Part shown: piece after piece, positions 42,083 through 57,312 of the stretch
Layout: each line of letters opens with the position of its first letter
Numbering within the stretch: position 1 is the stretch's first letter
Source: a virus
Lineage: Duplodnaviria; Heunggongvirae; Uroviricota; Caudoviricetes
Direction: 5' to 3' (one strand)
DNA: 64,000 nt
Virus record (IMG/VR): IMGVR_UViG_3300034157_000063
Notes under the pieces: generated by a model
The model's input: only the letters and a program-made list of their open reading frames with translations
Told to the model about the DNA's origin: nothing
Databases searched by the model: none
Made by a program: the position numbers and the translations under genes

Positions 42083-43015
42083 ATGAAAAAAAATATGTTA
42101 GCACTCTTTATTGTCTCAACATTTGGTATTTCTTTTGCTGATTATCGCATAGTTTTTCCAATGGAAGTAACCAATGGTGGAGCACTACAAAATGGTAGTA
42201 TTACCTTTACAGGTGGGACACCTCCTGTTGTAGAGCAACCTGTCACTCCACCTGCAGCCAAAGATGAATGTATGCCTGCATCAGTTGGTGTCTATGGTTG
42301 GCGTATAAATAGAACGAGTGGAGTAGGAGCTGTTCTTTGGAATGGTTCAACTGTAGGCACTTTCTCATCAGGTGTCACATCATTGGCTGGGCCTAATGGA
42401 ATCGTTTACACAAAAGATGCATCAACGTCTTCATTGACACAAGGACCAAATAACTTATTTGGTATTTGTAGAAATATACCGGGTAATTTTAATGGTGGTG
42501 CTTGGGTCAGTATTGCTCCTGTTGTGACTGCATGGACAAACTCAGGATCTGCTTATAATTGTACATGGACTCCCGATTCAAACAATTATCTACCAAGTCA
42601 GTCAGTAGATCAAACAGGTATTAATTGTAAACAAAAACAGGTAAGCACATCACAAGCAAGAGAGCAAAATGATTCGACGTTAGCTATTAGAAATGTTGGT
42701 TCACTTACTAATCTAAATAGAGATATTGATAGCGATGAAAACCCAACAAGAACAATTGCAGGCACAGATACAACCACTGATCTAGAAACGTGTGGTTATG
42801 ATAGATTGGCTGGTTGGTATTGGGAAGTTAGTTTATCTGACAATGAAACTTCTTACATTTCTTGGAAAGGAAATAAAGTTTTTTATTATCAAGAATCTCC
42901 ACATGTAGGTAATGTGACACAATTGACGGTTAATGGTATTACTTACAAACGTTCAACTTTCAAAAATGGCGATGCAAATGTCAGCAATTATGCACTTTGT
43001 CGTGTTAATAACTAA
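42083..43015 (+). CDS. exported protein with two Cys-bounded beta modules
   Basis: Signal peptide; modules C..W..WNG..Y..CR and C.YDRL.G.YW..SW.G..NGITYKR..CRV. Confidence 0.75.
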   Translation: MKKNMLALFIVSTFGISFADYRIVFPMEVTNGGALQNGSITFTGGTPPVVEQPVTPPAAKDECMPASVGVYGWRINRTSGVGAVLWNGSTVGTFSSGVTSLAGPNGIVYTKDASTSSLTQGPNNLFGICRNIPGNFNGGAWVSIAPVVTAWTNSGSAYNCTWTPDSNNYLPSQSVDQTGINCKQKQVSTSQAREQNDSTLAIRNVGSLTNLNRDIDSDENPTRTIAGTDTTTDLETCGYDRLAGWYWEVSLSDNETSYISWKGNKVFYYQESPHVGNVTQLTVNGITYKRSTFKNGDANVSNYALCRVNN

Positions 43016-43200: not shown

Positions 43201-43605
43201 ATGAAAAAAATAGCTTTGATATTACTCACAACCAGTTTTTTTTCGTTAACGCAAGCTGAATTTATTTTAACATCTCCACTTACTGGCCCACGCGGGATAA
43301 TGGAGGAAAGTTCTATTATTATGAAGGCTGCACCTATTGAAAACGTTCCAGCCGCTGCTCCTGTTTCAGACACTTGCGATTATGATCGTTTAAATGGCCT
43401 TTACTGGATGGTTGTTACTAATGAGGGACCAAGACAAGTTGCTCATGTAAGTTGGAACGGAACAACGCTTTATGATTATAATGGTCAAGCCCATATCAAT
43501 GATGCTACACAAGTGATCTTTAACGGGATTACTTATAAGCGTGGAGAACAGAAGATGGTTGATTACTATTCTGTCACTTATGGTGTTTGTCGCGTCAACA
43601 GTTAA
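43201..43605 (+). CDS. exported protein with one Cys-bounded beta module (paralog of 42083)
   Basis: Signal peptide; CDYDRLNGLYW..SWNG..NGITYKRG..CRVNS. Confidence 0.75.
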   Translation: MKKIALILLTTSFFSLTQAEFILTSPLTGPRGIMEESSIIMKAAPIENVPAAAPVSDTCDYDRLNGLYWMVVTNEGPRQVAHVSWNGTTLYDYNGQAHINDATQVIFNGITYKRGEQKMVDYYSVTYGVCRVNS

Positions 43606-43712: not shown

Positions 43713-44657
43713 ATGCTTACAATTGATGAGGTTAAAGATTACTTAAACATGCCAGAACTCCCTATTCTACACACGAATAGTGAACGAAATTTTTATGTGA
43801 AAAAAATCTATGATGATTATTATTGTTCAAATCACGATCAATCTATCATTATTCGAGCCTTTGACGATTTTGAACCCATTAGTGTTTCAACGTCTCGCTA
43901 TTTTTCTGTCTACGTTAATGATTTTGTCGTTTTGACGTATGTAGGTGATCACTCTTATAATTCAGACATCTTCAAGATTTTTGATGGATTGCCCTTCATG
44001 ACATTAACACCAGAACATTTTTATTTTTTTATTACTGAAATCAATACAAAAGGCAAAGATTGTATTGTCTATTTCGATAGACTGTCTGAAAAAGTTATTG
44101 ATTATAATGGTGATCAGAATATCAATATCGTGTATGTTTGTTTGAAAGAACAAAAATATAAGGATAAATCTTTTTATAAAATTGTGAATGGTGAAATCTT
44201 GTTTGCTTTTGGTTTATACACTAATCAATATTTTGGCAGTGATGAATATAAAAAATATTTTGATAAAATAGCTTATTTGAGAAAATATTACAACTTATAC
44301 ACCTTTATAATCTATCAGTCTATTAATGCGGACACTGTTCGTTTGTTGGTGAGTACTTATGATTTTGAAATCGTGTTGAATAATTCAGTGACTCATAAAC
44401 ATCTGTTTGAAGAATCTAATCATTCAGCGGCTTATATTTACGAAAAAAATAAGCGTACAACTCCGATCACTATTAATACCATTGAGAGTGGTGATGCAGT
44501 CGGTGACTTAATTGAAAAAATTATTGATGGAGTGTTGAAAGAATATCCATGTTCATATTTCGATCTGTTTTTATCCGATGGAGGTGTGCGTTACACATCT
44601 TTAGATGATAAAGAAATGGATGACTATGTTAAATTATTCAGGATGAGCACGATCTAG
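43713..44657 (+). CDS. hypothetical protein with shared C-terminal motif (..KLFRMSTI)
   Basis: GGAG SD and promoter upstream. Confidence 0.7.
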   Translation: MLTIDEVKDYLNMPELPILHTNSERNFYVKKIYDDYYCSNHDQSIIIRAFDDFEPISVSTSRYFSVYVNDFVVLTYVGDHSYNSDIFKIFDGLPFMTLTPEHFYFFITEINTKGKDCIVYFDRLSEKVIDYNGDQNINIVYVCLKEQKYKDKSFYKIVNGEILFAFGLYTNQYFGSDEYKKYFDKIAYLRKYYNLYTFIIYQSINADTVRLLVSTYDFEIVLNNSVTHKHLFEESNHSAAYIYEKNKRTTPITINTIESGDAVGDLIEKIIDGVLKEYPCSYFDLFLSDGGVRYTSLDDKEMDDYVKLFRMSTI

Positions 44658-44682
44658 TTTAAAGTGCTTTTATTTTAGCTAT

Positions 44683-44860
44683 AAAAAAAGACCTGACATT
44701 GCTGTTAGGTCTTTTTAGTTTAAGGGAAGCGATCAGGTATATCAGCCAATAGAGTTAGAAGGAACCGTAATCATAGCCTTGAATAAGTAGATATGGAAAG
44801 CGAACAGGTAGATCGTCATTTAAAGAATGTTTAGAAGGAACCTAATTCATAGCCTTATCT
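44683..44860 (-). ncRNA. candidate tandem-pseudoknot small RNA, locus 1
   Basis: Minus-strand promoter TTGACT(44895)-16-TG-extended TAATAT; two copies of RAGGCTA-N7-GGTTCCTTCTAA (44831-44856, 44755-44780); GCAA-loop terminator with U7; no ORF. Confidence 0.7.
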
Positions 44861-44981
44861 AAGTACAATATTAGCAGATTATTTTTAAAAGTCAACAGTT
44901 TTGTTTGTTTTTTCTTTTAAATTATGTTAAAATCATTTCAATTGAAAACCTCATTAGATTTAACAGATAGGAGTATTTTTT

Positions 44982-45377
44982 TTGAGTGACTATGCAGAAT
45001 TTGAGATTGCAGCGGTATTAAATAATGTTATGATTATTGATAAATTATTCAAAGCTAATGGAAATATTCATAAGATTTGTTCACATTTGCAAACTGAAAA
45101 TGAAAGGTATCACGAGGAATCTGTAACGGGTTTAGATGTGGTTCGGGATTCTGATGATTATAGTTTTATGATTTATGCCAAAGATTTTAGATTTCGCATT
45201 AAAGAAAACATGATTTCTATTTTTTATGGTGAGTTTGGGATTAACGTTAACACTAGAACAGGAGATTCAATAGAAAATTTTAAACTATTATTTCTGACTC
45301 TGGTTAATATTCATTCCGACCAAAAATTTGAGAATGTTGAGCAATTCGTTGATCTGTATAACATGATTCATATTTAA
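44982..45377 (+). CDS. tandem-array family member (half-length), C-terminus ..DLYNMIHI
   Basis: NNVMIIDKLFKANG motif shared with the array. Confidence 0.7.
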   Translation: MSDYAEFEIAAVLNNVMIIDKLFKANGNIHKICSHLQTENERYHEESVTGLDVVRDSDDYSFMIYAKDFRFRIKENMISIFYGEFGINVNTRTGDSIENFKLLFLTLVNIHSDQKFENVEQFVDLYNMIHI

Positions 45378-45473
45378 GTCTTTGGAGTGTCCTATGCTTT
45401 TAAAAAATGATTCAACCTTACTTGATTCAATTTAAAAATTAGAGATCTCACTTTATTGTTACAGGAGAAAAAA

Positions 45474-45914
45474 ATGATTACCGTTGAAAACGAAATTAAA
45501 AGATTAGTGTTTAATAACATTTTAATTGTTGATGAACTCTTTAAAGCTAATGGGAAGATTTATGACGCTTGTCTTTCTTTACAAAATGAAAATAAATATG
45601 CTCATACTGAACGTATTAATGGGATGCAATTTACAAGATATCTAGGCAACAAAGCGTCTGACAACTATAATTTTACTGTTTATATTGATTCTCTTATGTT
45701 TTCTATCGAACTAGATCTTATTGTTTTTAAATATGGAGAGCTATCTATCCGTGTCGATTTTAAAGTTGGTCCAGATGAAGATACCCCTGATATACGGCTT
45801 GAAAAAATTAAAACATTTAAAGCTCTCTTTCTTTCTTTAATAAACATTAAAGCGGATCAAACATTTGAAAATATCGATCAATTCGTTGATCTCTATAACA
45901 TGGTTCATATTTAA
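45474..45914 (+). CDS. tandem-array family member (half-length), C-terminus ..DLYNMVHI
   Basis: Close paralog of 44982 (NNILIVDELFKANG). Confidence 0.75.
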   Translation: MITVENEIKRLVFNNILIVDELFKANGKIYDACLSLQNENKYAHTERINGMQFTRYLGNKASDNYNFTVYIDSLMFSIELDLIVFKYGELSIRVDFKVGPDEDTPDIRLEKIKTFKALFLSLINIKADQTFENIDQFVDLYNMVHI

Positions 45915-45930
45915 GTATTAGGAGTAACCT

Positions 45931-46701
45931 ATGTTGTTAAAAAATGATTCACGATTACTTGAAGTTTATTTTAACATTAGTGATTTGGCTCAATTTGAGG
46001 TTGATACGACATTCGCCAGTGAATTAATATCGCCCAGCGAAAAACGGTTTTTAATGAACGCTGTTCGTGCTTTAGCAAACGACATATTATCAGTTTCAGG
46101 CGACTTTAAAACCAGTATTAATTTTTATATTCGTCAATCAGGTTTATTGATTGAAATGGACTCTTCTTATCCATTTTTAATGCAATCATCTTTTAATTTT
46201 GAATTGTCTGAACCTTTAATTAAAGATAAGTCTCTAGATCATTATGTGAGCGATTTAATTTATCAAAATGATCGATATCGAACGTATGGGAGTTATTTAA
46301 CTCTTGTTGATTTTAGGTCTTTCTTTGAAAACATTAGATTTATTGACAACTTATTTGAATTTGATGGTAAATTTTATTCTTTTTATAAAGACATTGATTT
46401 TACAATGGGGGCACGCGAATTTAAATTTGATTCATTTAATTCTTTCGTACATTGTGGTGAACACCCCTTGTTAAAAATTCAATTTGGAGATCTTCTGGTC
46501 ACCATTTCCCCTGATGAGTTTTCTTTTGCTATTATGGGTGGTTCCGCTATTTTGACCATATCTAAGCAGAGTAGAAGGAATTATCATCAGAAAAAAGATA
46601 ACTTAGCAAAGCTTATTATAGATATGTATAATATGGAGTTGATGCTAGAAGTTGATACCATGAAAAATTTACTGCTATTGATTAGAATGAAGGCTATTTA
46701 G
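45931..46701 (+). CDS. tandem-array family member, C-terminus ..LLIRMKAI
   Basis: ALANDIL, SYPF and ENIRFIDNLFEFDG motifs. Confidence 0.75.
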   Translation: MLLKNDSRLLEVYFNISDLAQFEVDTTFASELISPSEKRFLMNAVRALANDILSVSGDFKTSINFYIRQSGLLIEMDSSYPFLMQSSFNFELSEPLIKDKSLDHYVSDLIYQNDRYRTYGSYLTLVDFRSFFENIRFIDNLFEFDGKFYSFYKDIDFTMGAREFKFDSFNSFVHCGEHPLLKIQFGDLLVTISPDEFSFAIMGGSAILTISKQSRRNYHQKKDNLAKLIIDMYNMELMLEVDTMKNLLLLIRMKAI

Positions 46702-46731
46702 TCTTCATTTTTTTGTTGCTTTATTTTAGGC

Positions 46732-46917
46732 AAAAAAAAACCTGTATCGCTACAAGTTTGTTTTATTTGAGGGAATTGACAAGGTTTAATCAGTTTAATA
46801 TTTACAAGTTAAGTTAGAAGGAACCTTAATGCTAGCCTCGGTGAAATAGTTGGTATGGAAATCGAAATGGTGAATCTTAGAATGAGTTAGAAGGAACCAA
46901 CTTCATAGCCTTACCGT
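46732..46917 (-). ncRNA. candidate tandem-pseudoknot small RNA, locus 2
   Basis: Minus-strand promoter TTGACT(46952)-17-TACTAT; motif copies 46887-46912 and 46814-46839; GCGA-loop terminator with U9; no ORF. Confidence 0.75.
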
Positions 46918-47015
46918 TTGTATATAGTATGATATTCGAACTAAAAAGTCAAGCGTTTTTTTTCTTGATTTAATGATTTTAAACTGTTAAAGTGTTTACA
47001 TAATGGAGAGGTTCG

Positions 47016-47858
47016 ATGTTTGATGAAAGTCTGCCTTATCAGTTAAAAACTGGTAGGCAATTAATAAAGTTGTCAGATTTAAAAAATGCGGAAATCATAG
47101 GCGTTCAGGATGAACACAATTTAAAAATTTCTCGTTTTTTAAACATTCTTGCTGATGATATTCTGTGTATGCGTGATGATGTAAAAAGTTATGTTTTTAT
47201 AGATATTGTTGATGACGTATTTTCTATATGTATAGACCATTCATATCCTTTTTTGGAATTTTTAAACAGTTCTAATCCCGTTAAAATAAATGAAGCATTG
47301 AATGGCGTTGATTTTCTTTTAAATCTAAATCTATCAATAGATTTAATTACTCCGGCCTTGTTGGCGATATTTCTTGATGAATTAAAAGCTGATGGTTGGT
47401 ATAAATTTAATGATGATGATGAGCGAGAATCGGAAACTGGTTTAATGGAACAGTTCATTCACATCAATGCATTGGATACTTTTTATGTGTTTGATATCAT
47501 CGATCAGGCATTAGGCTATGATGGAACACTATCCAAACGGGTTAAAAATAATATTTACCATGTAATGCCATTCTCAGAAGAAGATGAGTTCTCAATGTTT
47601 GAATTTAGAAACTTTAATTCAAATAATATTGAGATGACACTCACCAACCATGATTTCTATATTAAAGTTATCAATAACACTATTAGATTTGAATATTTAT
47701 ATGATTCGATGGAGTTTAATTTAAATAAAAAACATCCAGTGGCCTTTAATATTAAAAAGTTTACTCAATTCTTTTTAAGTTTTTACAATATTCAACATGA
47801 TACAGACCATGATGACTTACCCCGCTGGATTAAACTGCAGGAAATGATAGCCATATAA
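47016..47858 (+). CDS. tandem-array family member, C-terminus ..KLQEMIAI
   Basis: ILADDIL, SYPF and IIDQALGYDG motifs. Confidence 0.75.
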   Translation: MFDESLPYQLKTGRQLIKLSDLKNAEIIGVQDEHNLKISRFLNILADDILCMRDDVKSYVFIDIVDDVFSICIDHSYPFLEFLNSSNPVKINEALNGVDFLLNLNLSIDLITPALLAIFLDELKADGWYKFNDDDERESETGLMEQFIHINALDTFYVFDIIDQALGYDGTLSKRVKNNIYHVMPFSEEDEFSMFEFRNFNSNNIEMTLTNHDFYIKVINNTIRFEYLYDSMEFNLNKKHPVAFNIKKFTQFFLSFYNIQHDTDHDDLPRWIKLQEMIAI

Positions 47859-47986
47859 CTGATATTATTGTTGCCATTCATTATACTTTATTTTTTACCA
47901 TTAAAATTTTATAATTTCATTAAAAATGAAGTATATTTAATGGTTTTAATATGTTATAATAATCCATTATTTTAGAGGCTCTGCAC

Positions 47987-48826
47987 ATGGCTAAATCAAA
48001 AAAAGATAACGAAATTATTATGCTTTCCAATAATGACAACCATACTGTTATGTTAACCGATTTACGTCGAGTAAACATTGAAGGAATCAGTAAGCAAAAA
48101 AATAATAGAATGTTAGCCTACTTTGACCTACTTGTTGACGATCTTTTAATTTATAACGGCGATTTTGAGTTAGATGTCGAAATTTCAATGAGTGCTGATA
48201 ACATGTTTATGAGTATCATGTTAGAAAAATCATATCCTTATTACTACGATTGTATTTTTCTTTGTTTTGATCTGAAAGAAAAAGCAAGTATTCAAAGTTT
48301 ATCGAGAGCACTTACTAATGTTGACAGTGAGGAACGCAATGATTGGGATGACAAAGATGATATTGTGAAATTTATTGACTGCAGTATTGGTTACGATCAT
48401 GAATTGATGTTGAGTGATTACCCACCTATGTTTATTGAGTATGGGTGTGGATTGATGAGTAATGTTCGCCTTGTTGATAAAGCACTCTATTTTGACAATC
48501 AACTGGTTAAGACTTTTCATGATAATAACATATACACAGGTAATGATATAAGAATTGATTCGTCATCATTTACGTTTACTATGCAGGGAACAAGAGAGCC
48601 TGATCTTTTTGTTAATTCCACTTACCTTGATATTAGAATTGAAAATGATGGTGTGAAGTTTACGTTTGATAAGGATAATACGTTTACCTTTACAACAACG
48701 ACTAATTTTGAACGTGACTTTAATATGCTGCAGATGTTCATTAAAATGTTTATTGAAAAAAAGAAAGATCACGATATTCATGATTTGAAAAGTGAGCTTT
48801 TGTTGATTGAAATGGAAACTATTTGA
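47987..48826 (+). CDS. tandem-array family member, C-terminus ..LLIEMETI
   Basis: LLVDDLL, SYPY and NVRLVDKALYFD motifs. Confidence 0.75.
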   Translation: MAKSKKDNEIIMLSNNDNHTVMLTDLRRVNIEGISKQKNNRMLAYFDLLVDDLLIYNGDFELDVEISMSADNMFMSIMLEKSYPYYYDCIFLCFDLKEKASIQSLSRALTNVDSEERNDWDDKDDIVKFIDCSIGYDHELMLSDYPPMFIEYGCGLMSNVRLVDKALYFDNQLVKTFHDNNIYTGNDIRIDSSSFTFTMQGTREPDLFVNSTYLDIRIENDGVKFTFDKDNTFTFTTTTNFERDFNMLQMFIKMFIEKKKDHDIHDLKSELLLIEMETI

Positions 48827-48827
48827 A

Positions 48828-49152
48828 ATGAATGAATATAAATATTTACTTAATGCCGATAATTTTTACATGTCTTCCATGACAGACTTAAAAACAACAA
48901 CATTTAAAAAATTAAAAGATGAACATAAACGAACATTATTAAATAGGTATTTAAGCCTGTTAGTTGATGATGCCTTATCTAACAATAAACCTGACTTCAA
49001 AATAGAATTTCACATGGCTACGTACTGACTGTATGGATCATGATACATTAATGGTTAATCAATTTTTTATTATTTATCTTGAAAAATGGCTTGGTCATAA
49101 GATTACAGATTTAAAAATAGAAATACAATTACTTGAGATGGAGTGCATTTAA
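48828..49152 (+). pseudogene. internally deleted, frameshifted tandem-array member
   Basis: N-terminal fragment 48828-49028 (LLVDDAL) and, in another frame, C-terminal fragment 49033-49152 ending KITDLKIEIQLLEMECI*. Confidence 0.6.
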
Positions 49153-49941
49153 ATGAAAAATGAAGAATGGGAATTTGATGTAGATTCAGACTCCGATTAT
49201 TATTCTGTCTTAATTTCAAGTGGTCACTCATACCATATGTTACTGAGTTCATTAAAGAATATTACAATTATTGATAGTAATCACACGCCCACTGATCATG
49301 TTAATATGCAAAAATATCTCACCTTGATTGTAGACGATGTTTTATTGTTTGGTTATAATGTTGAAGTTAGTTTTAGCCTCTCTATCAATAACCACATTAT
49401 GTTGTTAGAAGTTGAAAAGCTATATCCCTTTGTAAAAGATAATATTGATTTTAGGATCGATCTTACACAAGATGTCGATATTAAGCATGTGGTGGCAATA
49501 TTGGATGACACCGTTGCTCGTGATGAAGCTAATAATAATCATATTCATTACACTGATCTTAAAAATCGGAACACTTTAAAAAACGTTGATATTGTTGATA
49601 ATGCATTATTTTATGATGGAACATTGAAAGAGAGTTTCTTAAACAATTTAATTAAAAGTGACTCCTTTAAATTTTCTTTTTTCGATATGTCTATTCTGAA
49701 CAATGGCGTTTCTGGTATTGAACTTCGCTCTGAAATTTATGACATGTCTATTTTTATTAATCAAGTTAAGGTTACTTTCAGATTAGCGGATGATTCATAT
49801 AGCTGGAACTTTACAGATGATACCGAATTTGATATTTTGTCTATTCGTCAATTATTTACATTATATCTAAGCAAACTTTTAAATAAAAAAATAACTGATT
49901 TAAAGCGTGAGATACAATTAATTGAAATGGAGTCTATTTAA
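49153..49941 (+). CDS. tandem-array family member, C-terminus ..QLIEMESI
   Basis: LIVDDVL, LYPF and NVDIVDNALFYDG motifs. Confidence 0.8.
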   Translation: MKNEEWEFDVDSDSDYYSVLISSGHSYHMLLSSLKNITIIDSNHTPTDHVNMQKYLTLIVDDVLLFGYNVEVSFSLSINNHIMLLEVEKLYPFVKDNIDFRIDLTQDVDIKHVVAILDDTVARDEANNNHIHYTDLKNRNTLKNVDIVDNALFYDGTLKESFLNNLIKSDSFKFSFFDMSILNNGVSGIELRSEIYDMSIFINQVKVTFRLADDSYSWNFTDDTEFDILSIRQLFTLYLSKLLNKKITDLKREIQLIEMESI

Positions 49942-50702
49942 TGTCAAATACCTATTTTAAAAAAATTGAGATTGAAAGTGGTAGCACTTACGCATTGTTT
50001 GTAAGTGAATTAAAATATATTTCTATAATTGATATTCCATATACTTCTTTTGAACATTTACAGATGATTAAATACATTGATATGATTGTTGATGATGTGA
50101 TGGTTTATGGAGTTGATTTTAAAGTTGAATTTAGTATTTATATTGATCATCAAACAATGAATTTTGAATGCAATTATCTTTATCCATTCATTAACGGTCT
50201 AGTCATATTTATTATCGATCTGAGTCGAGATGTTAGCGTTCAACGTGTTTCTAAAACACTGGATCATATGATTGATATCAATATCATGCATGATCAGCAG
50301 ATTAATTATACAGATCTCAGTCAGCATACTATGTTTGGTAACATTGATATCGTTGATCAAGCCTTATTTTATGATGGTAAATTAAAAGAAGTATTTTCTA
50401 AGCGTTCACTTTTTGAAGAAAGTATTAAATTTTCCTTCTTTGACTTAAATTTTTTAAATAATGGGGCGACGGAAATTCAACTTCTTTCTCTCAGTGCTGG
50501 TGTATCTATTTGGATTGATATTAATAAGGTTTCATTTAGATTTGATGGTAAAGATTCATCTAGTTGGTATTTTACTGATGAGGCTTCATTTGATATGTTA
50601 TCAATACGTCAATTATTTGTACTCTACCTTGGCAAAAAATTGAATAAGCCCATTATAGACGTTCGAAGAGAAATCCAATTGATTGAAATGCAAACTATTT
50701 AG
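49941..50702 (+). CDS. tandem-array family member, C-terminus ..QLIEMQTI
   Basis: Close paralog of 49153; TAATG stop-start coupling. Confidence 0.8.
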   Translation: MSNTYFKKIEIESGSTYALFVSELKYISIIDIPYTSFEHLQMIKYIDMIVDDVMVYGVDFKVEFSIYIDHQTMNFECNYLYPFINGLVIFIIDLSRDVSVQRVSKTLDHMIDINIMHDQQINYTDLSQHTMFGNIDIVDQALFYDGKLKEVFSKRSLFEESIKFSFFDLNFLNNGATEIQLLSLSAGVSIWIDINKVSFRFDGKDSSSWYFTDEASFDMLSIRQLFVLYLGKKLNKPIIDVRREIQLIEMQTI

Positions 50703-52778: not shown

Positions 52779-55181
52779 TCACTTAAGCAGTGAGTTGATT
52801 TCAATCTTTTCGTAACTGTTTTCTGTATTCCTACTAGTAAACACATAAGCACTATCAGTCGTAATCGCTACATCTGTATCGTCATTTAATATCGGGGTTT
52901 CACCGACCTTAACACTTTCAAACAAATCAAACACTGATGGTAATGTGTTCAAATACTCAACAAATGCTGGCATTCTCTCAGACAGCAAAGTACCGTTTGT
53001 TTCTGCTGAATGAACATGACCATACAAGTTAGCATCCATATAAACCACTTTCCTTTCAACCAAGTCGAGGTAAGCCACATACTTGGTCAAATTCTTACCT
53101 TTCACTTCAAAGACAAATTGAGCACGGCTTGGTTCGTAAAGATTGCCTTCTTCAGCATTCTCACCCATTTGCAATGTGCCGACTAAATCATCAGCCGCAT
53201 CGAATGGTTGACTGTTGAACGACAAGATATTCCAGACCGCATAACGCACACCAGAATTAACCAATTTGTCGATATACAAATCAATCATTTGGCAACCACG
53301 ACCCGCAGTGTCTTGACTAATCACTGGATCTCCTGAGAATACTGCACCAGCATTTGTATTTCTATCCAAGAAATGATCTTCACTTGTCGTTGAGTAAACG
53401 GCATTCCAGCAACAAGCCCCTTTTGAACCCCAGTTTTCATCAAAGAAGTTCCAGCTATTATCAAACCAGATGTTACCAGAATCCTTCATCTGCCAGTAAC
53501 TTGCACTGCGAATGAAATTGATATTTTCAGGCATATCAAACACGGTACCACGACCATAATTAGCCGCAAGGTTTTGATCATTGGTTTGAAGCTTAATCTT
53601 GCTTGTAGCTTTATCCAGCATAACGCCTTTTGGAAAGAGAACTTCCATACGTTTAGCAATCTCTGTATTGACAGCAGTTACGATAGTTTCTACAGATTCA
53701 GCAGACAACATGACTTTGCCATTTTTAATTGGCTTGTAGACTTTTTTCTCAGGTGCTACATAACGTTGATACACAGGCTTTGGTGAAGGAACAAACATAG
53801 GCTCAGGAGCAGGCTCAAGATTACCTTTGAACTTTTCAATCAACATCGCTAAGGCGTCACTGGATGGAATGCCAGATTTAACTTCTGTAATAGCCGGTTG
53901 CTCAACCTCAGTTTTTACCACTTCGACAATGGCAGGTTCCACAATATCAACGGCTTTTACTTTTTGTTTCTTCTCTGCTTTCACAGGTGCTACGAATTCT
54001 TTTTCCACTGAGGCGTCTTTTTCAACACGTTGAATAAAGTGGGCACTTGTCCAGTTACCTTTTGGTGCATAGATGAAGTGCTGACGATCATTAATAGTGG
54101 TCACATACTTTTTCAACTTCAACAGTTGTAACGTATCAAATTGATCAATCTTAGCCACAATCGCATCCACAGCTTTTTCACCAAACACTTCGTAAAGCTT
54201 ATGGAAACGACGCATCAAGTCACCTTGACGGTTTGAAAGCATATTAAACACTGTATCATCTTTGGTCAAGACTTTGTTTTCAACCTTGGCGTTGAAGCTT
54301 TTAAGCTCGCCATTGCACAAAGTGCCATAGACAGCCGTTACTTTCGGGAAGTTGTAATCTTTTGGGTGAAGCTGGAACATAAATTTCTTCCAGTCTTGTT
54401 GACGCATAGCCACGTCATCAGCCAAATTATTAGACTTGTTCAACAAAGACAACAAAGCCTTACGCTCTTTACGAGTGAATTTTTTGAATTTTACTTTGGT
54501 GCGAAGTGAAACATCCGCATCGGACATTGCTGCAGCCAAACGCATTACATCGGTAGCGTCTTTAATAGTGAAATTAAGACCGCTTTCAATCGCTTGCTTG
54601 ATAATTACGATACCGTTCTCTTTGAAGCCGAAATCGCTCAAATTGATAGTTTCTTGTGTATGGTTAGTAAATAGCTGGCTGGCGAAATCCTTTTGTTGAT
54701 CATTCCAACGGTTTTTAGATTGAACAAGTGTCGCCCTGATAGTATTCAAGGTGTCTTCTTTTTCAAGATGAAGGACTTTCAAGTTCTTTTGATCTTTGAG
54801 AGCTGGACGTTCTACTTTATCATCAGCGAAATAGTCTGGGCTAAAACCAACATACATCAAAATCTGGCAGAACCAGTATTCAGCTTCAGATTTATCAAGC
54901 ACTTCTTTTGGGAAGTTTTTGTAAACAACAGCCGAATCCATATCACGATCAGAAGCTGTCACCTCTTTGAAAGCAGGTTCCACCGCCAACCAGAATGACT
55001 CTAAATCTTGTGCTGTATAGGTTTGAAGTTGTTCGATGACTTCACGAGATGGAGTCCAGCCATAGTGAACCATGTTGGCAAATACAGTAGACAGTTCTTC
55101 TTTGGTCGCAGGTGTGCCGGAAACAACGCGAGTTGCTTGCACAAAATTGTTTGCCAAAAGAATTGTGTTTGTATTTATCAT
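52779..55181 (-). CDS. large protein with C-terminal TerD-like domain
   Basis: VYKNFP, RQGDLMRRF, YAPKGN, YGRGT, FSGDP..GCQMIDLY..GVRYAVWNILSF motifs; GGAG SD before ATG 55181. Confidence 0.6.
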   Translation of the reverse strand: MINTNTILLANNFVQATRVVSGTPATKEELSTVFANMVHYGWTPSREVIEQLQTYTAQDLESFWLAVEPAFKEVTASDRDMDSAVVYKNFPKEVLDKSEAEYWFCQILMYVGFSPDYFADDKVERPALKDQKNLKVLHLEKEDTLNTIRATLVQSKNRWNDQQKDFASQLFTNHTQETINLSDFGFKENGIVIIKQAIESGLNFTIKDATDVMRLAAAMSDADVSLRTKVKFKKFTRKERKALLSLLNKSNNLADDVAMRQQDWKKFMFQLHPKDYNFPKVTAVYGTLCNGELKSFNAKVENKVLTKDDTVFNMLSNRQGDLMRRFHKLYEVFGEKAVDAIVAKIDQFDTLQLLKLKKYVTTINDRQHFIYAPKGNWTSAHFIQRVEKDASVEKEFVAPVKAEKKQKVKAVDIVEPAIVEVVKTEVEQPAITEVKSGIPSSDALAMLIEKFKGNLEPAPEPMFVPSPKPVYQRYVAPEKKVYKPIKNGKVMLSAESVETIVTAVNTEIAKRMEVLFPKGVMLDKATSKIKLQTNDQNLAANYGRGTVFDMPENINFIRSASYWQMKDSGNIWFDNSWNFFDENWGSKGACCWNAVYSTTSEDHFLDRNTNAGAVFSGDPVISQDTAGRGCQMIDLYIDKLVNSGVRYAVWNILSFNSQPFDAADDLVGTLQMGENAEEGNLYEPSRAQFVFEVKGKNLTKYVAYLDLVERKVVYMDANLYGHVHSAETNGTLLSERMPAFVEYLNTLPSVFDLFESVKVGETPILNDDTDVAITTDSAYVFTSRNTENSYEKIEINSLLK

Positions 55182-55336
55182 GTTCAATATTTCTCCTAAT
55201 TGATTTAATGTAACATCAAATAATACGCTCATAAAGCACTTAAGTCAAGCACCTTTATGCTTTTTTTTGTGATTTTTTGATAGCATATCTTCTTATCATG
55301 TGATATCATTAGGCACCAATAATGTGGAGAATATTT

Positions 55337-56127: not shown

Positions 56128-57312
56128 ATGTATCCAGTTATCAAACACGGCTCAGAAGATTCTTTGGACATTGATGCGTATATCATCATTCCAGAACCAC
56201 TTACTATGCAAGAAGCCAAGAAGCTTTGCGATTCTTACAAAGAAGTAAACGGCAACCTTTTGAGCGTTAAAGACGGTGTTGTTAACTGGTGCTACAAAGG
56301 TACCGTGGATGAGTGTAACAACTCTATCCTTGCAACCTATGCTCTGCACAAACAAGAAGCAGCCAACCCGATTACTGCATCTTTGCCACGTTCGTATGCT
56401 TTGAAAATGATTCGCACTGTTCGTGGGTTGCTCTCTTATCATTCTCGCACTGAAAAGCGTGAAGAAGTCAAAAAAGCATTGCAATCTGCGGATATGTTGT
56501 TCAAGTTGGATGTGTTGACTGGCATTGATTTGCGTGATGTGGCTGACTATCAAAAATCGTCGCTGGTAGAAACCTACAAGTTCTTTGCCTTTCAGTTAGG
56601 TCAAACTATGGCACTGTTAAAAGATAATGTGGAACTGTTTACTAAAAGCTCAGTGGCTGAATACTACCCTGAGTTGACTGGCTACTTGCAGCGTAAAGAA
56701 GGTGAACCTGTAGACGCATTGCAAAAAATGTGGGCTGACTTTGGTGTTTACTTGAAAGAAACTGTTCGTAAAGTTGAAAAGCATGAATTGTATGCCACTG
56801 ATTATCAGGGTGTTCGTGAAGTGTTCGATTGTAAGAAAGAAATTATCTTACCACCAGTGGTTGTATTTGACATTGATGGTACTTTGCTGGATGAAAAACA
56901 TCGTGCTCAATACCGTGATGTGAAAGATTGGGATAACTATTTTGACTTGTGTCACTTGGATACACCTATTCAACACATTATTGATTTGACCAAAGAATAT
57001 CGGGCAAAAGGTTTCGAAATTTGGTTGATGAGTGGGCGAGTGGATCGAATCATGGATAAAACCATTAAATCTATGGAAGATTATGGTGTTTGTTATGACC
57101 GTATCAAATTGCGTAGCCCAGAAAACCGAGTACCTGATTTTGTGATCAAGCCTGCTTGGATTTCAAAATACATCGGATTGGAACGTGTTGTAGCTGTTTA
57201 TGATGATACTGACCGTGTTATCGAAGGTTTTCGTAAAAAGGGGTTGAACGTCATTGATGTTAAATTGATGGGCGTTCCAGCTCAGGTTAAAAAGCCAAAA
57301 ATGAAGCCTTAA
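56128..57312 (+). CDS. putative nucleotidyltransferase fused to a HAD phosphatase (PNKP 3'-phosphatase-like)
   Basis: N-terminal HGSEDSLDIDAY (hGS..DhD); C-terminal VFDIDGTL, LMSGR, K, YDD HAD motifs. Confidence 0.7.
   Translation: MYPVIKHGSEDSLDIDAYIIIPEPLTMQEAKKLCDSYKEVNGNLLSVKDGVVNWCYKGTVDECNNSILATYALHKQEAANPITASLPRSYALKMIRTVRGLLSYHSRTEKREEVKKALQSADMLFKLDVLTGIDLRDVADYQKSSLVETYKFFAFQLGQTMALLKDNVELFTKSSVAEYYPELTGYLQRKEGEPVDALQKMWADFGVYLKETVRKVEKHELYATDYQGVREVFDCKKEIILPPVVVFDIDGTLLDEKHRAQYRDVKDWDNYFDLCHLDTPIQHIIDLTKEYRAKGFEIWLMSGRVDRIMDKTIKSMEDYGVCYDRIKLRSPENRVPDFVIKPAWISKYIGLERVVAVYDDTDRVIEGFRKKGLNVIDVKLMGVPAQVKKPKMKP

Follow-up and report, generated by a model that had tools for sequence, protein, structure and literature searches.

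A 64,000-nucleotide (64-kb) stretch of giant phage DNA, IMG/VR record IMGVR_UViG_3300034157_000063 (hereafter the window), carries at positions 46732-46952 an element, referred to here as RNA locus 2, whose hairpins belong to an RNA family that is conserved, widespread and absent from Rfam 15. This RNA family strictly co-occurs with one protein family, represented in the window by the protein P0001. Taken as a whole, we consider it probable that RNA locus 2 encodes, on the minus strand and as its own transcription unit, a small RNA of about 185 nt made of two tandem hairpin units, and that hairpins of this family are the dedicated partners of the P0001 family, with which they would form an RNA-protein particle; both the binding and the function are what we infer.

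Locus 2 has the layout expected of such a gene. The first-pass annotation of this DNA, made from the letters alone, had read a promoter, paired motifs and a terminator here, and all of its coordinates and motifs were confirmed on the minus strand, with motif I copies at 46912-46887 and 46839-46814 (spacing 73 nt) and motif II equivalents at about 46872-46854 and 46786-46769. The promoter is listed by a promoter scan with 9 of 12 matches, aligns with the promoters of the paralogous RNA locus 1 and of two loci in a 437-kb relative phage (L006), and places its -10 box 12 nt from the sequence AGGCUA, a distance identical at locus 1. The terminator hairpin forms in the minimum free energy (MFE) fold; having only two G-C pairs, it is absent from the output of a consensus terminator scan. 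Across the four aligned loci the terminator stems differ in sequence while pairing is kept in all four. As the first-pass annotation had pointed out for the terminator stem, some pairs of locus 2 are U-G wobbles whose plus-strand counterparts would be A-C; they are located in the terminator and, within unit 2, in the inner stem. The 13-mer GGTTCCTTCTAAC, at no more than 2 mismatches, occurs 5 times in the window, and 4 of these occurrences are in RNA loci 1 and 2. The locus occupies the gap between the plus-strand genes at 45931-46701 and 47016-47858, and no open reading frame (ORF) of at least 40 aa was found within 46702-47015. The upstream array gene ends in a terminator of its own that is convergent with that of the RNA, so the RNA gene fills a true intergenic gap (Table 1). 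A functional minus-strand noncoding RNA gene with its own promoter and terminator, as the first reading had proposed, is supported by the retention of the promoter, two units and terminator in four loci and by the covariation described below.

The folding energy of locus 2 is unremarkable, with z = -1.58 on the minus strand against -0.03 on the plus strand; a single-sequence energy of this size is not significant alone, and the plus strand folds about equally. Homologues were therefore sought, and it is their covariation that carries the case. Scanning viral contigs for the motif returned five loci, including the 437-kb relative, and a covariance model (R1) was built with the hairpin structure imposed from ten units, of which four came from the window, five from the 437-kb relative and one from elsewhere. 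A broader family model (R2), applied with filters off to both strands of the 64 kb, scored the four window units at 46-64 bits, all on the minus strand, with the next best match at 13.8 bits, a gap that places the four units beyond chance.

Two alignments were then scored against slid controls. The first (A4) contained 75 distinct sequences matched by R1, and the second (A7) contained 77 distinct sequences from loci found by RNA motif alone and aligned with R2. In A4, 88.8% of cells were paired (slid controls, 45-51%), with 339 double-change cells (53-91) and a covariation score of 0.717 (0.09-0.17). The corresponding values for A7 were 90.3% (39-49%), 408 (59-137) and 0.835 (0.10-0.17). Both alignments were fitted to the model and are biased toward its structure; the compensation is nonetheless real, as judged by the slid controls and by the number of pair types. 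Scoring covariation with additional homologues, which the first-pass annotation had asked for, thereby supported the hairpin pairs in A4 and A7 alike.

The units share one plan. The 5' and 3' ends of the unit are paired in an outer stem that varies except for its two closing G:C pairs, which are invariant; both units of locus 2 show this. The stem leads into an internal loop that is asymmetric and conserved (5' C-Y-A-U / 3' R-M-U-U-Y). Next comes the inner stem, also variable, usually with a bulge or a small internal loop and closed by a U:A pair. The heptamer UCCUUCU, single-stranded in the model, stands directly after the closing U:A; it is present in both units of locus 2 and is kept in 74 of the 75 distinct sequences of A4 and 75 of the 77 of A7. 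The remainder of the apical loop is variable (5-70 nt) and often contains a small hairpin in GC-rich bacteria. The elements GG, C, A, UCCUUCU, UU and CC are invariant across phages, Actinomycetota, Myxococcota, cyanobacteria, Proteobacteria and Chloroflexota. Phage loci carry one to seven units, usually two to seven diverged ones, and bacterial loci mostly carry one. At least five to seven tandem units are present in some phages (L069, L060/L119 and L118), and in L060, L069, L118 and L119 the units form two clusters about 2.1-2.4 kb apart, which presumably flank the gene on both sides.

Searches of Rfam 15 gave no match at the units, either over the whole window at the gathering score or over 44500-47100 at E ≤10, and none at the units of ten bacterial loci. 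The only hits, ncr1015 and MicC among them, were dismissed as terminator-driven noise. A blastn search of the phage GenBank collection with 44600-47100 returned no match, and the literature searched contained no description of the RNA family or of the RNA-protein pair. The possibility of tRNA mimicry was dropped for the window, where ARAGORN finds nothing in 64 kb.

Within locus 2, unit 1 has the outer stem GGUA.GG / CC.UACC, the internal loop CUAU / GAUUU (a combination found in 9 of 152 units), and the inner stem GAA(G)(U)UGGU / ACCA(U)UUC; its apical loop begins with UCCUUCU. Unit 2, the most diverged unit, has the outer stem GAGG / CCUC, the internal loop CUAG / AAUUC, the inner stem AAGGU / ACCUU and a 37-nt apical loop with the same beginning. 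In the MFE folds of both window loci every unit is a single long interrupted hairpin, in which the partner of the 5' AAGG is the 3'-terminal CCUU or CCUC of motif II, and not the CCUU within motif I.

The first-pass annotation had instead taken each unit to be an H-type pseudoknot, with the 5' AAGG paired to the CCUU of motif I (P1) and interleaved with a second helix of GGU with ACC (P2). AAGG or GAGG can indeed pair with CCUU in all four window units, and the inner two invariant G residues, which can pair with either CC, do not discriminate between the hairpin and the pseudoknot. Comparison of 74 distinct homologues went against P1, as its outer 5' positions vary and the loop CCUU is invariant, leaving uncompensated U-U or C-U at the two outer positions in 19 of 74 and 10 of 74 sequences. 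The same two positions pair instead with the 3' strand after motif II in 71 of 74 and 68 of 74, with four pair types each, and their covariation with the 3' end of motif II comprises GC 32, AU 19, UA 11 and CG 8. Both alignments favour the nested hairpin, which MFE folding also returns, and we regard the pseudoknot as very improbable. The other half of that proposal stood: P2 is compensated in the homologues, including an A-U to U-A swap between UGGU/ACCA at locus 2 and AGGU/ACCU at locus 1, and in the hairpin model it forms the top of the inner stem.

The link between the RNA and the protein was assessed from both directions. Starting from the protein alone, 51 loci were fetched from 16 viral contigs and 35 bacterial genomes, the latter including Dactylosporangium, Virgisporangium, Myxococcota, cyanobacteria, rhizobia, Aquabacterium and Chloroflexota. 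In 42 of these loci R1 found a unit no more than 700 nt from the gene, and R2 added six, giving 48 of 51; the remaining three are a broken gene or short fragments. The R1 hits were concentrated near the gene, with 65 of 71 in the 11% of DNA nearest to it and 67 of 71 on its strand. The reverse scan, by RNA motif and blind to the protein, yielded 76 new loci, 32 of which were confirmed by R2. The protein gene was found in the same locus for 30 of those 32; in one it lies elsewhere on the same 304-kb contig, and the last is a fragment estimated to be 9% complete. The 44 loci recovered by pattern only (419 kb) contained neither the gene nor a model hit and were used as a negative control. No conserved neighbour other than the RNA was found at loci of the protein gene. 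Neighbour clusters that recurred were explained by ORFs overlapping within the gene or by local synteny of Dactylosporangium. The special tie between the RNA and the surrounding gene array that had been suggested for the window was not borne out; the RNA family is tied to the protein encoded at 52779-55232 instead.

Additional observations were made at these loci. In the pattern-only loci (L058, L061, L062, L064 and about 40 other viral ones; e.g., L058:3978-4049) a near-identical pyrimidine-rich stretch of 72 nt recurs, and a second pyrimidine-rich type measures 45 nt. Both are found in viral contigs of 20-45 kb, mostly from one dataset, with no hairpin fold and no partner gene, and the recurring stretch probably represents a conserved coding region read in antisense. 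The partner gene of one cyanobacterial metagenome-assembled genome (L037:2324-4225) is divided between two neighbouring frames, with no RNA unit detected, and is possibly decaying. Units and gene are found next to tmRNA or tRNA genes in other large phages (L007:5378-5795, L019:11713-12062, L014:5658-5812, L010:11331-13887 and L001). In L014 the unit begins 4 nt after tRNA-Pro, a spacing that suggests co-transcription and tRNA-type processing.

P0001 has at least 530 homologues by sequence, of about 700 aa. Searches of Pfam, PADLOC and PDB sequences returned no informative match and no nuclease family, and a strong match was obtained to PHROG 33734, a group of unknown function. The gene has a promoter on the minus strand in the style of both RNA loci (TTGACT at 55248-55243, a 17-nt spacer and TATTAT at 55225-55220) and its own terminator just past the stop codon. 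This promoter overlaps the first ATG of the ORF (55232), and as the alignable part of the homologues begins at about residue 17-24, M18 (55181) is the probable start of translation. AlphaFold2 models predict a helical N-domain (predicted local distance difference test, pLDDT, 83.9 for this domain by itself) and a C-domain rich in beta structure, with a disordered linker between them. With Foldseek, the modelled C-domain matched the TerD structures 2qz7, 3ibz, 2kxt and 2qng (E 2e-4 to 4e-4; template modelling score by target 0.67-0.71; for the fold overall, E about 1e-4 and 0.63-0.71), suggesting a TerD beta-sandwich by fold; the Pfam TerD model PF02342 gave no match to it.

For the modelled N-domain, VIA-align returned the Ro60 protein of Thermus phage phiLo (9l5y_B, Z 5.9 over 207 residues), Deinococcus Rsr (2nvo_A, Z 5.7 over 206) and Xenopus Ro (1yvp_A, Z 4.7 over 215), all below Z 8. 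These three stand within the top 31 and have the longest alignments among the 50 listed; one ribosomal-protein row in the same listing spans 204 residues with a root-mean-square deviation of 13.3. ESM Atlas returned only uncharacterised relatives of the N-domain. On the strength of these models, P0001 may be called Ro60-like in the sense of a resemblance in plan, and possibly in fold, and not of membership. Residues 241-258 of P0001, within the helical domain (window positions about 54510-54457), form a basic segment of high conservation, with the family consensus SLRTKVKFKKF.R.ERK; it is a candidate RNA-contact patch.

The arrangement of these genes in the window differs from that at almost all other loci. 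Locus 1 has the same layout as locus 2, and the paralogy of the two, which the first reading had recognized, extends to the whole order of promoter, unit 1, unit 2 and terminator, an order that also aligns with two loci of the 437-kb phage. The units of loci 1 and 2 are 57-66% identical. In the alignment of the four two-unit loci, which runs from the promoter through the terminator, each unit is matched to the unit of the same number; the two-unit gene was therefore duplicated in one piece. In the 437-kb relative four units lie directly beside the P0001 homologue, as two two-unit loci following the gene, and a fifth unit lies among three array paralogues. In the window both two-unit loci are inside an enlarged array, on the strand opposite to the array genes. 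The P0001 gene is on the same strand as the RNA loci, 5.8 and 7.9 kb away, and by R2 no unit adjoins it anywhere in the 64 kb. The P0001 gene and the two RNA loci are thus three transcription units, each under its own promoter of a similar type, an arrangement that speaks for a trans-acting RNA and against an element of an untranslated region (UTR).

In the mechanism that we propose, RNA produced from the autonomous genes would act in trans, and P0001 would recognize the invariant internal loop, the UCCUUCU heptamer, or both. The protein and the hairpin RNA would then assemble into an RNA-protein particle, and the variable stems and apical loops, which differ between units, may confer unit-specific properties on it. 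Multiple RNA specificities of the diverged units, as raised by the first-pass annotation, are possible. A more far-reaching version of this idea, which we hold only tentatively and think less likely than not to be correct in full, is that the pair is an undescribed, widely distributed ribonucleoprotein not descended from Ro60, whose units are multiplied and diversified by large phages so that one protein acquires several RNA-defined specificities, for example RNA targets or tethered partners in infection.

Other roles for the RNA were weighed against this explanation. The units could be a cis-acting or autoregulatory site on the mRNA of the protein itself, such as a leader or a 3' UTR operator, and in bacteria they are well placed for this, lying on the gene's strand, either 6-60 nt downstream of the stop codon or 40-210 nt upstream of the start, and probably being co-transcribed. 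Against such a site, however, the position of the unit switches between upstream and downstream of the gene, phages carry up to seven tandem units on one or both sides of it, another phage has its unit away from the gene on the 304-kb contig, and in the window the RNA loci and the P0001 gene each have their own promoter and terminator and are kilobases apart. A cis-acting site is therefore unlikely. We give about the same low weight to an RNA that inhibits or neutralises the protein, in the manner of the repeat RNA of type III toxin-antitoxin systems, or that acts as a decoy. Tandem units adjoining the protein gene on the same strand, with a terminator between them in some phage loci, and a strict pairing in which no third gene is involved would suit such an inhibitor, but P0001 matches neither PADLOC nor a nuclease family, bacteria usually have a single unit, and the units are diverged hairpins, only 57-66% identical, and not near-identical direct repeats.

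A base-pairing regulatory RNA would use the UCCUUCU loop to sequester purine-rich ribosome-binding sites, and its link to the protein would be secondary, for example as a chaperone. UCCUUCU would be complementary to AGAAGGA-like Shine-Dalgarno regions, and its invariance and single-stranded position in the model are compatible with this role. The heptamer and the internal loop are nevertheless invariant together from actinomycetes to phages of AT-rich hosts, which fits contact with a protein better than contact with diverse mRNA targets, and we judge base pairing to be less probable still than a cis-acting site or an inhibitor.

Some observations also weigh against an RNA-protein particle of the kind proposed here. 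Co-occurrence would also fit an RNA that regulates or inhibits P0001 without being part of a working particle, and the 5.8 and 7.9 kb between the RNA loci and the gene in the window are unlike almost all other loci. The Z values of 4.7-5.9 to Ro60 fall below 8, the level that the aligner's notes call reliable for helical proteins, and the likeness went unseen by Foldseek (E ≤0.001), Pfam and a comparison of the N-domain profile with PDB sequences. Additionally, unit 2 of locus 2 has the lowest score of the four window units and an atypical internal loop, which deviates once per side from the consensus and forms a pair unique among the 152 units.

Table 1. Features of the window discussed in the text.
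Feature	Position	Strand	Description
Promoter, RNA locus 2	46924-46952	minus	-35 TTGACT 46952-46947, 17-nt spacer, -10 TACTAT 46929-46924, A-rich tract upstream; sigma-70-type, predicted
Unit 1, RNA locus 2	46852-46915	minus	Interrupted hairpin; R1 70.9 bits, R2 58.7 bits; MFE fold agrees
Unit 2, RNA locus 2	46769-46839	minus	Diverged hairpin; R1 59.6 bits, R2 46.1 bits
Intrinsic terminator, RNA locus 2	46732-46756	minus	CUUGUA-GCGA-UACAGG; stem 46756-46751 / 46746-46741, then U9 46740-46732
Intrinsic terminator of array gene 45931-46701	46684-46711	plus	Convergent with RNA locus 2 terminator
Paralogous RNA locus 1	44683-44895	minus	Promoter, units 44860-44789 and 44784-44718, terminator; layout as locus 2
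Tandem array of paralogous genes	44982-50702	plus	131-280 aa; shared C-terminal tail (e.g., LIEMETI, LYNMVHI)
P0001 gene	52779-55232	minus	817-aa ORF; helical N-domain, low-complexity linker, C-terminal TerD-fold domain
Phosphatase gene	56128-57312	plus	PNKP-type HAD phosphatase domain fused to an N-terminal half; two genes from P0001

The genes of the array that surrounds the RNA loci gave no match in Pfam, PHROG or PADLOC, and the three array paralogues of the 437-kb relative are located at L006 10268-12884. The phosphatase gene is 81% identical and in the same position in the 437-kb relative and is conserved in this close relative only; a PNKP-type phosphatase near P0001 hints at RNA end-healing. 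Elsewhere in the window, the plus-strand ORFs 42083-43015 and 43201-43605 have hydrophobic N-termini that by eye resemble signal peptides, and the two have in common a C-terminal module of 78 residues (40% identity) with CRVN at its end.

The specific contribution of the window is its autonomous RNA genes far from the P0001 gene, which argue for a trans-acting RNA over a UTR element. The protein family of more than 500 members by sequence has no Pfam domain, and its RNA is absent from Rfam 15. The presence of the family in cultivable Dactylosporangium (such as D. aurantiacum NRRL B-8018, locus L034), Mesorhizobium (sp. SP-1A, L025), Pararhizobium (sp. BT-229, L023) and Aquabacterium makes the proposed binding directly testable.

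The pair was compared with several known systems. As with the type III toxin-antitoxin RNAs ToxI, CptI and TenpI, tandem units lie beside, and on the strand of, the gene of a presumed bound protein. The units here are diverged hairpins of 64-79 nt, whereas the toxin-antitoxin RNAs are near-identical repeats of 34-36 nt that form pseudoknots; the partner is about 700-800 aa with no match to a defence model, and the window's RNA genes are unlinked from its gene. No toxin of the ToxN, AbiQ, CptN or TenpN type with near-identical short repeats was found, and PADLOC gave no match. With the TerD proteins (PF02342; 2qz7, 3ibz, 2kxt) P0001 would share the beta-sandwich fold of its modelled C-domain together with an SGDP motif; unlike them, it is undetected by the Pfam TerD model, is fused to a helical domain of 400 residues and is tied to an RNA, and no other ter genes were found near it. 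The NCBIfam family NF041916 (MXAN_6230/SCO0854 family RING domain-containing protein), which is actinobacterial and myxobacterial, matches the C-terminal half of the helical domain and the TerD-like region at 154-216 bits and is among the nearest shapes to P0001 in the ESM Atlas. These scores are well under the family's cut-off of 600 bits, however, and only the later part of the profile is matched, the best stretch being 487-729 of 842.

In plan the pair resembles Ro60 (Rsr; TROVE and vWA domains) and its Y RNAs, including YrlA (RF02553; PMC4201824; phiLo Ro60, PMC12135203, PDB 9l5y). By sequence P0001 has neither a TROVE nor a vWA domain (Pfam at E ≤10; N-domain profile against PDB sequences), its second domain matches TerD structures and not a vWA with a metal-ion-dependent adhesion site, and its N-domain fold match is weak (Z 4.7-5.9). 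The RNA of the window likewise matches no Y RNA, YrlA or Yrn model, has its own invariants (CYAU / RMUUY and UCCUUCU) and contains no tRNA-like module in its units. In both cases, nevertheless, a dedicated protein and small RNAs are encoded adjacently in bacteria and large phages, and several RNA paralogues may be present per genome. In both, the 5' and 3' ends of the RNA are paired in a stem that carries a conserved internal loop or bulge below a variable apical part, and in the protein a helical N-domain precedes another globular domain. Should the two bind as proposed, bacteria and phages would have a second particle with the same plan as Ro60 and Y RNA.
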